Assembly (NCBI GenBank): GCA_021814825.1
Contig: JAKAHS010000003.1
Location: 1 to 33,957, forward strand
Length of the DNA stretch: 33,957 bases
Reading direction: 5' to 3'
Source of the DNA: a bacterium
GTDB lineage: Bacteria; Patescibacteriota; Minisyncoccia; Phycocordibacterales; SBAW01
A model generated the notes under the pieces. That model saw only the letters and a list, made by a program, of their open reading frames with translations. It ran no database searches and was not told where the DNA came from. Position numbers and translations under genes: made by a program. Within the stretch, counting starts at the first letter, position 1, and the number at the start of each line of letters is the position of its first letter. Positions 13,746 through 16,648 of this stretch are shown one piece after another.

Positions 13746-14381
13746 ATGAGCGAACAACAGAACCAGATCAGCGTTCTCGCTGGCGCATTGGTGACGCACC
13801 AACGCCGCTTTAGCAAAATGCCCACGGAAGATCGCCAGTGGGCGATTCAGAACACGGAAGAGGCGATCGGCTTGTTTGCCGAAGCGGTGAAGAACCGTAA
13901 CGGCAAGGCGACCGAGACGAAGAAAGCAGATACCAGCCTCATCGCGCCCAACGGCATTGAGTTGCCGGAGGGGACGGTCATCCGTCGCACCCGTGTCGAC
14001 CCTATGCGTACCCCGCAGGAAGTCATCGCAGCTACCGGTCGCAAACCGTACGTCAACGATTGTGTCCTCGCGACGATGCCTCAAAGCGAAGGTGGCGAGA
14101 TCGATGTGTACTTCCTCCCGACCAAGCGCTTCATGCCGATGAAAGAAGTCACGGCATTTCTCGCGCAATACGGTCTCGTGTCGAATCCGCGCGCGCAAGC
14201 GTCAGCGAACGAAGACAATCCGGCCTTCGCTGACAAGTATCCGAACGGTTCGCAGTGGGGCAATAATTGCTACCTGACGTTCGGTCGGTGGAGCGGCGAC
14301 CGGGGCGTGCGCTGCCGCCGCGACGACGGCGGCTGGAGCGGCGGCTGGTTCCTGTCTGGCGTCCCGGCTTCCCGCAATTAG
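13746..14381 (+). CDS. DGR target (variable) protein; C-terminal variable region probably of C-type lectin fold
   Basis: AAGGAG RBS; C-terminus CYLTFGRWSGDRGVRCRRDDGGWSGGWFLSGVPASRN is encoded by VR; no signal peptide or TM helix seen. Confidence 0.92.
   Translation: MSEQQNQISVLAGALVTHQRRFSKMPTEDRQWAIQNTEEAIGLFAEAVKNRNGKATETKKADTSLIAPNGIELPEGTVIRRTRVDPMRTPQEVIAATGRKPYVNDCVLATMPQSEGGEIDVYFLPTKRFMPMKEVTAFLAQYGLVSNPRAQASANEDNPAFADKYPNGSQWGNNCYLTFGRWSGDRGVRCRRDDGGWSGGWFLSGVPASRN
14266..14377 (+). repeat. DGR variable repeat (VR), with an invariant 3' IMH-like segment
   Basis: Aligns ungapped to 14762-14873 with 18 mismatches, all at TR adenines; last 32 nt (TGGTTCCTG...CCCGCAA) identical. Confidence 0.97.
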
Positions 14382-14432: not shown

Positions 14433-14462
14433 CGGGCTCGCATTCTCCTGAATGCGAGCCCG
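14433..14462. promoter_or_regulatory. Hairpin/cruciform downstream of VR (retrohoming signal and/or terminator)
   Basis: CGGGCTCGCATTC-TCCT-GAATGCGAGCCCG perfect 13-bp stem, followed by TTTTGTATTT. Confidence 0.8.
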
Positions 14463-14761: not shown

Positions 14762-14873
14762 ATTGCTACCTGACGTTCAATCGGTGGAACGACGACCGGA
14801 ACGTGAACTGCAACCGCAACGACAACGACTGGAACGACAACTGGTTCCTGTCTGGCGTCCCGGCTTCCCGCAA
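14762..14873 (+). ncRNA. DGR template repeat (TR)
   Basis: AAC/GAC-rich copy of VR (8 AAC, 1 AAT and 5 GAC codons in the variable part). Confidence 0.95.
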
Positions 14874-14879
14874 CTCTCT

Positions 14880-15291
14880 TCATTTCTCGCCCGTGCCTCG
14901 CGGCATGGGCGAGTTTTGTTTCGTGAGTTGCCCGTTCCAGCCGCCGAGCATTTTACCCACTTCGTCGAGCTTTGAAGAAAGCAATACGTACTGTCTATTC
15001 TGTAACGACTTAGCTTCCCACAGGACCATCAGTAATAGTTTTGCGGTATCGAGTTTGCGGATGGCGAGTCGAACCCACGGCGCTTTTTCTCCGCGTGGAA
15101 GAAAAGCAGCATACGCAGTCGACTCTATTATCTCAACGAGCAGCGAGTCGATTTTTCCTCCGATGGTGTAGCGATGCAGTTTTGGGAGCGTAGAATAATA
15201 CTCATGCCACAGCAGGTAAGTTTGTTTGATGCGCTCCAACACCGGCAGCAGGTTTCTGGGGGGGGGCTTTAGCAGGACGGTCTTCACTCAT
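14880..15291 (-). CDS. avd: DGR accessory variability determinant Avd (four-helix bundle); proposed ATG 15291 is out of frame at the C9 tract (the ORF track uses GTG 15287)
   Basis: LPKLHRYTIGGKID...L.EVGKMLGGW signature; located between TR and RT. Confidence 0.88.
14886..14920 (+). terminator. Hairpin 3' of TR (terminator-like or DGR spacer RNA structure)
   Basis: CTCGCCCGTGCC-TCGC-GGCATGGGCGAG (12 bp, one G-U) followed by TTTTGTT. Confidence 0.65.
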
Positions 15292-16386
15292 ACCTATGAG
15301 GATATCATCTCCATCCCAAACCTGCTTGCGGCGTGGCGTGAATTTGTGAGAGGCAAAAGCGGCAAGCCCGACGTGCAGGAATTTCAGTATCGGTTATTTG
15401 GCAACATTTTCGCACTGCACACTGAACTGAAGTACAAGACGTACGCTCACGGCAGCTACCGTCACTTCAAGGTCAACGACCCCAAGCCGCGCGATATTCA
15501 TAAAGCGAGCGTGCGCGACAGACTGGTGCACCATGCCATCTACCGCGTCCTCTACCCGTTCTTCGACCGCACATTCATCGCTGACTCATATTCATGTAGG
15601 AATTGGAAGGGGACGCATAAAGCGATGAACCGTTTCCGTACCTTTGCTCGCAAGGTGTCGGAGAACGATACGCGCACCTGCTGGGTCCTCAAGTGCGACA
15701 TACGGAAGTTCTTCGCATCGGTAGACCAGCATGTGCTCCGTACGATCCTTGAGCGATACATTACTGATTCCGACATTCTGCTCTTGCTCGATCGTGTCAT
15801 TGGCAGTTTCTATAGCACGGAAATAGGCAAAGGGTTGCCGCTTGGCAATCTCACCTCGCAACTGCTCGTGAATATCTACATGAATGAGTTCGATCAGTTC
15901 ATGAAGCACACGATCAAAGCGAGATACTACACCCGCTATGCTGACGACTTCGTGATAGTGAGTAGAGACAGAAGAGAGCTCGAAGCAATGCTGCCGAAGA
16001 TAGACGCGTTTCTTCATGAGTCGCTCAAACTCACCCTTCATCCACAGAAGGTATCGATCGCCACACTAGTCTCCGGCGTCGACTTCCTCGGTTGGGTGCA
16101 CTTTCCCGGCCACCGCGCGCTGCAGACCGCTACGAAGCGCCGAGCACTGCGCCGTACTCAAGGTCTTGAGGTAGATAGTCCGACGGTGCGATCGTATCTT
16201 GGAATGATGAGCCATGGGAATACAAGGAAGGCGAGAAGCGCAATTGAATCTCAGTACAGCATGTCAGGTCGTATAGATGGCCAGCATCTTGGGTTGACAG
16301 AATGGCCGCGCTCCGATTTCATACAGGCAGGAGGTAACCAACCAGAGAGAGGCGAAGATGCAAACACTCGTGACGTTCCAGGATGA
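15204..16386 (+). CDS. DGR reverse transcriptase; proposed ATG 15204 is out of frame at the G9 tract (the ORF track uses TTG 15226)
   Basis: DPKPRDI, RDRLVHHA, SYSCR..KGTH, KCDIRKFF.S, GLPLGNLTSQ, RYADDF and DFLG motifs. Confidence 0.95.
15258..15266. repeat. G9/C9 homopolymer within the avd/RT overlap
   Basis: ...TTTCT GGGGGGGGG CTTTAG... Confidence 0.9.
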
Positions 16387-16600
16387 GATGGGGACACCGT
16401 TCCACTGTGTCCTGGCTGGCGATGATTGGCTGGAAAGCGGCTTGATCGACAGCGTCGGGCAAGAGATCGAGGTGGTCGACTCAGAAGACCAGCCGGGAGA
16501 GCCCTACATCGTCGTTGAAATCACCCCCGAGGCGCAAGACTGTCTTGCGGGTGCGGTCAATGAAGTGACGCTTCGCAAAAAGAGGCGCCTTCTCAACTGA
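16358..16600 (+). CDS. Small hypothetical protein
   Basis: 80 aa, GAGG upstream, followed by a terminator; overlaps the RT 3' end. Confidence 0.6.
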   Translation: MQTLVTFQDEMGTPFHCVLAGDDWLESGLIDSVGQEIEVVDSEDQPGEPYIVVEITPEAQDCLAGAVNEVTLRKKRRLLN

Positions 16601-16615
16601 CCCCGGGAAGACGGT

Positions 16616-16648
16616 AAAGCGCGGACGAAGTCCGCGCTTTTTCTTTTT
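16616..16648. terminator. Intrinsic terminator between convergent genes
   Basis: AAAGCGCGGAC-GAA-GTCCGCGCTTT then TTCTTTTT. Confidence 0.85.

Follow-up and report, generated by a model that had tools for sequence, protein, structure and literature searches.

Simple-sequence repeat (SSR) contingency loci include the poly-G tracts of Campylobacter jejuni and the phase-variable genes of Neisseria and Haemophilus, while phasevarions and mutator switches include repeat-gated mod methyltransferases (as in the H. pylori phasevarion) and repeats in mutL. Here we describe a tract of nine G residues (C on the opposite strand) situated where two divergent genes of a diversity-generating retroelement (DGR), those for its reverse transcriptase (RT) and for Avd, overlap at their 5′ ends. 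The element is carried by 33,957 nt of a contig (JAKAHS010000003.1 of assembly GCA_021814825.1, positions 1 to 33,957 of the forward strand) from a bacterium of the Patescibacteriota, and this whole stretch of DNA is referred to below as the window. As in SSR contingency loci, the 5′ coding region contains a pure G/C run of ~8–13 nt or a repeat with a unit other than a multiple of three, close strains differ in the length of this repeat, reading frames are scrambled in relatives, and the host is without MutS-type repair. The best explanation, which we consider the most likely one and hold with a little more than even confidence, is that slipped-strand switching of the tract at the DNA level would couple and uncouple the start codons of both genes.

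The DGR in the window is genuine: an RT with an RVT_1 domain (E = 1.3e-24 in Pfam) lies beside a template repeat (TR) found ~350 nt upstream of it, the differences between the TR and the variable repeat (VR) are confined to TR adenines, and a target gene carries the VR at its 3′ end. The avd gene (minus strand) and the RT gene (plus strand) are divergent, with 5′ ends overlapping head-to-head, and the junction between them comprises the following features:

15258..15266, no strand assigned: G9/C9 tract, proposed hypermutable switch; the longest homopolymer in the window
15267..16386, plus strand: RT body, from tract edge to stop, with RVT_1 domain
14880..15257, minus strand: avd body (bAvd four-helix bundle), from tract edge to stop; Pfam PF22296
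15191..15196, plus strand: TAGAAT, a −10-like box 7 nt before ATG15204
15204..15257, plus strand: RT leader open reading frame (ORF) MPQQVSLFDALQHRQQVS..., its ATG antisense to avd Trp-His codons; out of frame with RT in G9
15267..15291, minus strand: avd leader ORF MSEDRPAKA..., its ATG15291 antisense to an RT His codon; out of frame with avd in G9
15299..15304, minus strand: TATCCT, a −10-like box 7 nt before ATG15291, embedded in RT codons for E-D-I

In the assembled G9 allele both ATG15204 and ATG15291 are one base out of frame with the gene bodies. Translation from ATG15204 yields MPQQVSLFDALQHRQQVSGGGL followed by a stop, contained within the listed ORF 15174–15272, and translation from the minus-strand ATG15291 yields a 29-aa ORF (15202–15291). 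The codon registers of avd and RT in the window are offset by one base (phi = 1, phi being the offset of avd codons left of the tract relative to RT codons right of it), and therefore a tract of G8 or G11 would join both ATGs to their gene bodies, with predicted long-form N-termini of MSEDRPAK... for Avd and MPQQVSLFDALQHR... for RT. An initial annotation, made from the letters of the window alone, had located the G9 run at 15258–15266 in the avd/RT 5′ overlap, had named TAGAAT-N7-ATG15204 and TATCCT-N7-ATG15291 as the starts together with their frames, and had claimed that one 1-nt change repairs both genes; the sequence and the ORF frames agree with all of this, the last point following from phi = 1.

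The tract exceeds chance expectation. In the 597-kb genome to which the window belongs, G/C runs number 228 (5 nt), 26 (6 nt), 3 (7 nt), 1 (8 nt) and 2 (9 nt), dropping about ninefold per base added up to the two 9-nt runs, and just 4 other G/C runs of at least 7 nt were encountered in 639 kb flanking 133 related loci, as against 130 at the junction. The sole other 9-nt G/C run of the genome (contig C37, 1325–1333) also coincides with a break in frame: an ORF on the C37 minus strand (1319–1789), ending in ...NAPSSGGGSS before its stop, abuts a 489-aa open frame at 3–1469 with a match to DUF7483 (E = 8e-43). This is possibly a second repeat-gated gene, perhaps encoding a surface or structural protein. 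A G8 run (contig C21, 11390–11397) is located close to the end of a small open frame of 90 codons. Two other roles for the poly-G at the DGR junction were considered and rejected. As a Shine-Dalgarno sequence it would lie ~14 nt from the RT ATG, in a genome with no enrichment of such sequences (7.2% versus 8.4%). As part of the initiation of mutagenic homing (IMH) element, the TR or the VR it would have to be reached by repeats which end ~385 nt away and have no common G-run.

For comparison across relatives, loci with an RT at 58–69% identity were taken from Patescibacteria-type records (80 genome and 80 metagenome loci), which together with the window made 161. A pure tract of G6–G13 was present between divergent avd and RT in 141 of the 161 loci, with lengths distributed as G6 in 3, G7 in 13, G8 in 17, G9 in 47, G10 in 44, G11 in 13, G12 in 2 and G13 in 2. 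Left out were 12 loci without an adjacent avd because of a contig end or N gap (L007, L021, L036, L048, L051, L057, L090, L110, L126, L127, L139, L143) and 8 loci without a run of at least G6 (L055, L066, L067, L068, L088, L100, L122, L159); after removal of seven duplicates with flanks at least 99% identical (L084, L095, L124, L129, L138, L142, L160), 134 non-redundant loci remained. As the loci are phylogenetically related, all p-values given here are overstated. One of the 8 loci without G6 or longer has a decayed GGGGAGG, and other repeats were found at the tract position, namely (GT)n in L055, L067, L088, L100 and L159, (CT)n in L066 and (GGCGGCT)6 in L068. All of these substitute units (2 and 7 nt) are non-multiples of three. 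In the window the G9 run lies between ATG15291 and the avd body and between ATG15204 and the RT body. Since pure runs are kept, or are replaced by slippery repeats with units other than multiples of three, the run is conserved as nucleotides and not as Pro/Gly codons.

Values of phi at the 134 loci were 0 in 32 (24%), 1 in 62 (46%) and 2 in 40 (30%), leaving just the 32 loci with phi = 0 in phase; a single conserved frame offset, as for a programmed frameshift, was not found. Inspected by eye, in-phase loci gave intact products such as MSENTSLTTPPRRSLLPVLERVKQ... and MPQQVSLFDPLQNRQQTPAGGGRQRSIFAHTYEDIIS, while other loci ran into stops; L074, for instance, is in phase and L017 out of phase. 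In these in-phase relatives RT reads MPQQ...GGG...HTYEDIIS and Avd reads MSE...PPPR.LLPVLE, and RT proteins in public databases show two upstream frames, MPQQ... and M(I)RS.TG..., which meet at GGG. The initial annotation had expected homologues to share a poly-G of variable length, and had held that a switch would be refuted by the absence of a conserved tract or by an invariant length; across the 161 loci the tract is conserved and its length varies.

ATG15204 and ATG15291 are marked as conserved, real starts by antisense-stop avoidance, the −10-like boxes and a forced third codon base. A minus-strand avd ATG antisense to the RT His of F-T-H-T-Y is present at 119 of the 134 loci, and the frame from it is open to the tract in 116 of those 119. 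Within the avd leader, codons that would create an antisense stop (TTA, CTA, TCA) account for 7 of 163 Leu/Ser codons, compared with 1232 of 5921 over the remainder of RT (p = 4.6e-9), and counting of stops by register gave 31 in 1443 codons for the leader versus 183 in 1421 and 174 in 1331 for the other two registers. On the RT side, loci were divided into group A, without an in-frame RT start after the tract (n = 52, the window's kind), and group B, with one (n = 82). In group A antisense stops are depleted among the first 20 avd codons (14/244 versus 156/930, p = 3e-6) and a plus-strand ATG is present at 41 of the 52 loci, with an open frame in 41/41, while group B, serving as an internal control, displayed no such avoidance (87/411 versus 337/1480, p = 0.50). 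Upstream of the avd ATG, 96 of 119 loci have a TANNNT box separated from it by 7 nt, and the Asp/Asn codon supplying the TA of this box has T or C as its third base in a ratio of 95:2, compared with 2176:1826 elsewhere in RT (p = 2e-22). A TANNNT box 7 nt before ATGCCA was seen in 19 of 25 group-A loci versus 3 of 15 group-B loci.

The same arrangement recurs in the window's own genome, where TANNNT-N6-ATG is found at 15.3% of 459 long-ORF starts versus 0.4% of 3046 internal ATGs; the modal gap is 6, and the 7-nt gap of the DGR boxes reaches 3.5% versus 0.8% genome-wide. Given this enrichment, and given that no Shine-Dalgarno enrichment was seen at the ORF starts of this genome, leaderless-type starts appear to be the host norm, and a −10-like box 7 nt before each of the two ATGs suggests leaderless or near-leaderless mRNAs. 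Both the TANNNT-N6/7-ATG pattern which the initial annotation had ascribed to host genes and its choice of the two ATGs as starts thus hold up, the former genome-wide and the latter through conservation in relatives with selection on leader ORFs and boxes.

Repeat length was found to differ between otherwise near-identical DNA in three pairs of loci. L135 and L160, which come from different metagenome records, were aligned over 2438 nt and differ only in G9/G10 and at 17 VR positions, where L160 has N; these Ns match TR adenine sites. L055 has (GT)10 and L159 (GT)7 (98.66% identical), and L092 has G10 and L096 G9 (92% identical). Two further pairs, L042/L124 and L012/L095, are 100% identical and are probably the same data. 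Missing MutS-type repair raises repeat instability. Across 41 genomes from the order, 38 of which are at least 90% complete, no MutS_V domain was found, and a search for the MutL domain in one genome, the window's own, likewise found none.

We propose that the G9 tract would act as a conserved hypermutable SSR inside the overlapping 5′ coding ends of avd and RT. Each gene would start at an ATG antisense to a conserved His codon (CAT) of the other, and from each start translation would have to pass through the tract before entering the gene body. In a MutS-less lineage, slippage during replication would then alter tract length, coupling or uncoupling start and body, a change of frame that would always hit Avd and, in the window's clade, RT as well. 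For the window this would mean that G9 uncouples both canonical starts and that G8 or G11 would couple both. We infer that length changes at a high rate within populations at the DNA level, and that out-of-phase alleles carry out little or no retrohoming; cells might switch on and then lock in a variant. For relatives with an RT ATG ~14 nt past the tract and a −10 box abutting it, one may speculate that the run acts on RT via promoter spacing and on Avd via frame. On the broader proposition our confidence is evenly divided: a large clade of Patescibacteria DGRs would itself be phase-variable, a repeat in the shared antisense 5′ ends stochastically switching targeted hypermutation on, and later off, in a small proportion of cells, with the start codon and −10 box of each gene lying antisense in conserved codons of its partner.

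A number of observations weigh against such switching. Among sets with 300-nt flanks at least 99.7% identical, tract length differs in L135/L160 only. Four sequencing runs (X1–X4, of which X1 and X2 are possible sources of the window) were examined as Logan contigs rather than reads, and G9 was present in contigs of X1 and X2 and of a divergent strain in X3. The contigs of X4 form a bubble at the tract, in which an 88-nt G8 contig, otherwise identical to the window (depth 2.9), stands beside a G9 contig with 2 single-nucleotide polymorphisms (SNPs; depth 2.5), and the two may represent two strains rather than phase variants. The branch with one G fewer is exactly the G8 allele which places both starts in frame, and the existence of this allele, predicted in the initial annotation, is thereby attested in one of the four runs at low depth; X4 is weak as evidence because depth is below 5 and the G9 partner carries the 2 SNPs. 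A flank-pattern search of JGI metagenomes for same-strain alleles gave 0 matches. Contigs often break at the tract or enter junk poly-C/poly-G of up to ~49 nt (L007, L021, L090 G16; X4 at 15236–15324), and the tract is a trouble point for assembly, by which length heterogeneity may be hidden.

Further points against concern three groups of in-frame alternative starts, by which the G9 allele could be expressed:

15217..15231, plus strand: TAAGTT, 6 nt and ATG15229, alternative RT start in frame in G9 (P0001, 385 aa)
15285..15287, minus strand: GTG15287, alternative Avd start in frame in G9, without a TANNNT box at a 6–7-nt gap
15237..15242, minus strand: in-frame GTG (15242–15240) and TTG (15239–15237) in 'LPVLE' after the tract, possible tract-independent Avd starts

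In G9 the RT frame is open from TTG15226/ATG15229, corresponding to the 385-aa database protein P0001, and TAAGTT-N6-ATG15229 has the modal gap of the genome; this start was not seen in five group-A relatives read by eye (including L003, L017, L020 and L074). The Avd frame is open through the tract from GTG15287. At 94 of the 134 loci an in-frame TTG, GTG or ATG occurs within 9 codons after the tract, and the share of TTG among Leu codons is raised there (55% versus 18% in group A, 26% versus 16% in group B). In the first 9 avd codons after the tract (15231–15257 in the window), TTG:CTG counts were 73:9 in loci of the window's kind versus 135:124 in the rest of avd; as TTG and CTG both give Gln on the antisense strand, the preference is not set by the antisense amino acid, and it could reflect a back-up start codon or a promoter element. 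In addition, three assemblies of one Giovannonibacteria-type locus (L056, L138, L142) are all out-of-phase G10 and differ solely in the VR, by 5–22 substitutions, and in L056 neither avd nor RT showed an in-frame start before the tract. Diversification therefore continued where the consensus looks OFF, which rare ON cells or leaky expression would explain equally well. These VR-only differences and the Ns in the VR of L160 may be taken as signs of ongoing diversification in nature. The initial annotation had called the assembled G9 allele OFF; its canonical ATGs are indeed out of frame, but the allele may not be silent, with ATG15229, GTG15287, GTG15242 and TTG15239 all in frame. Given these alternatives, an OFF state could amount to weak expression or to a shortened isoform.

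The main rival to switching in DNA is constitutive recoding, in which slippage of RNA polymerase along the G/C run, or a ribosomal shift at CCC/GGG codons, would give some in-frame Avd and RT whatever the DNA length, and that length would drift neutrally. We regard it as unlikely, and both may coexist. Precedents for recoding are dnaX, IS elements and +1 shifts at CCC-C, and the run, with a modal length of 9–10, is long enough to be slippery. All three registers are common among the relatives, and phi = 1, which needs a +1 shift, is the commonest and is over-represented (62/134, chi-square p = 0.0045), an excess which counts against DNA switching and which a preference for +1 recoding could explain; the VR was moreover diversified in the lineage with the three out-of-phase assemblies. 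A programmed shift, however, usually fixes one offset, and no such fixation is visible in the division of registers into 24%, 46% and 30%. Bacterial RNA polymerase also slips less on G/C than on A/T runs. In 7 loci the run is replaced by (GT)n, (CT)n or 7-nt repeats, which are not known to be substrates of RNA slippage or ribosomal shifting but are classic substrates of DNA slippage, and the differences in length between near-identical contigs are themselves differences in DNA.

Somewhat more doubtful than recoding is an arrangement in which the tract does not gate expression at all, translation beginning at tract-independent starts and the run being a tolerated spacer, a promoter element or a Pro/Gly-coding element. 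The in-frame ATG15229 with its TAAGTT-N6 box fits this, as do the TTG-enriched starts within 9 codons past the tract in 94/134 loci, from which 21 of 120 database Avds are called, and the position of the RT start after the tract in 82/134 loci (in most relatives an ATG ~14 nt past it). Where the RT −10 box abuts the tract, as a TANNNT box directly does in 29 of the 66 loci with a post-tract RT ATG, the run may do no more than tune promoter spacing; the window is arranged differently, and no −35 element was established. Yet the upstream leader ORFs bear marks of selection (stop avoidance, the ATG in 119/134 loci, a box enforced at a synonymous site), and such selection is not easily reconciled with translation beginning past the tract. 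The remaining 99 of the 120 database Avds run through PP(P), in 26 of the 134 loci an in-frame start is lacking before as well as after the tract (the first 9 codons being counted), and a Pro/Gly motif needs no pure G at third positions and would not yield to (GT)n. An artefact of assembly or sequencing, with a true tract of G8 and G9 as a homopolymer error, is very improbable: the other G9 of the genome (C37, 1325–1333) also breaks a frame, and junk poly-C/poly-G ends occur at the tract in some contigs (L007, L021, L090), but G9 recurs in independent Logan contigs from X1, X2 and the divergent X3 strain, lengths are reproduced between independent assemblies (L056, L138 and L142; L082 and L084; L117 and L129), and the 134 loci, which come from many projects, show the same frame scrambling. 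Slippage in DNA is rated above these readings because 2- and 7-nt repeats substitute for the run, DNA length differs in near-identical contigs, and no single offset is conserved.

The other features of the DGR lie on the plus strand, to the left of the junction:

13746..14381, plus strand: DGR target gene, an ORF of 211 aa with the VR at its 3′ end
14266–14377, plus strand: VR, from repeat search and alignment to the TR
14762–14873, plus strand: TR, 84% identical to the VR
14433..14462, plus strand: GC-rich hairpin and T-run 3′ of the target gene/VR (13 pairs, loop of 4), terminator-like
14886..14913, plus strand: GC-rich hairpin and T-run 3′ of the TR (12 pairs, loop of 4), terminator-like

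The TR/VR pair is 112 nt long with 84% identity, and every mismatch column of the alignment has A in the TR. From the end of the VR (14377) to the tract (15258) is ~900 nt, the VR and the tract together spanning ~1 kb. A Pfam scan of the 211-aa target gene product gave no match. The two hairpins resemble each other, and that at 14886–14913 falls within the 3′ end of avd on the opposite strand; if it terminates transcription, TR RNA would be separate from the RT mRNA. The RT gene is directly followed by an acidic ORF of 80 aa (16358–16600, plus strand), without a Pfam match, and then by a terminator-like hairpin (16616–16640).

Avd of the window matches the bAvd family PF22296 with E = 7e-8 and 33.3 bits, under Pfam's cut-off of 40 bits; it has 1350 homologues at E ≤ 0.001, and PF22296 is present in all 120 close ones. 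The protein (14880–15287, minus strand) was not found among called proteins of 74–237 aa in a collection of 5.8 billion proteins, in which the RT is present, and full-length avd was apparently missed here by gene callers. Within the genus the DGR is patchy: 7 of 26 genomes have it, the best of them reaching 70% identity.

What restrains DGR activity is an open question, since unchecked retrohoming would erase useful variants. If the proposed mechanism is true, the tract would constitute a second-order contingency switch, that is, a random switch controlling a directed mutator, and would provide a very large uncultured group with a simple restraint under which the bulk of cells would retain the variant they have while a small number re-diversify. 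The frequent appearance of avd as a broken or absent gene in annotations of these genomes would then also be accounted for, and annotators would learn where avd and RT truly begin. Full-text searches of literature on DGRs, on the candidate phyla radiation (CPR) and on phase variation turned up no description of this feature, nor is it described in passages of a 2024 Bacteroides DGR preprint, a 2022 review and a 2026 RT preprint. What would be new here is the application of repeat-driven phase variation, a known mechanism, to a DGR.

In its general anatomy the element resembles the CPR DGRs of Wu et al. 2018 (PMC5758913), as far as passages of that paper describe them: RT, Avd, an adenine-specific TR/VR pair and a small target gene with the VR at its 3′ end. 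The same passages contain nothing on a repeat at the avd/RT junction, overlapping divergent starts or an out-of-frame avd.

With programmed slippage and frameshifting (dnaX, IS elements, prfB) the locus shares a homopolymer between start codon and gene body, and differs in that homologues have no fixed offset and repeats other than homopolymers can replace the run. It differs from SSR contingency loci in what would be gated, namely two enzymes of targeted mutagenesis and not surface or restriction genes, in that one tract is common to two divergent overlapping genes, and in its hosts, which are uncultured Patescibacteria of groundwater and mine drainage; switching here is proposed from sequence. 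Closest in logic are phasevarions and mutator switches, where a stochastic repeat likewise lies upstream of a system that changes phenotype or raises mutation and so forms a second-order switch. Unlike those systems, the output here would be neither methylation nor genome-wide mutation but site-directed hypermutation of one target protein.

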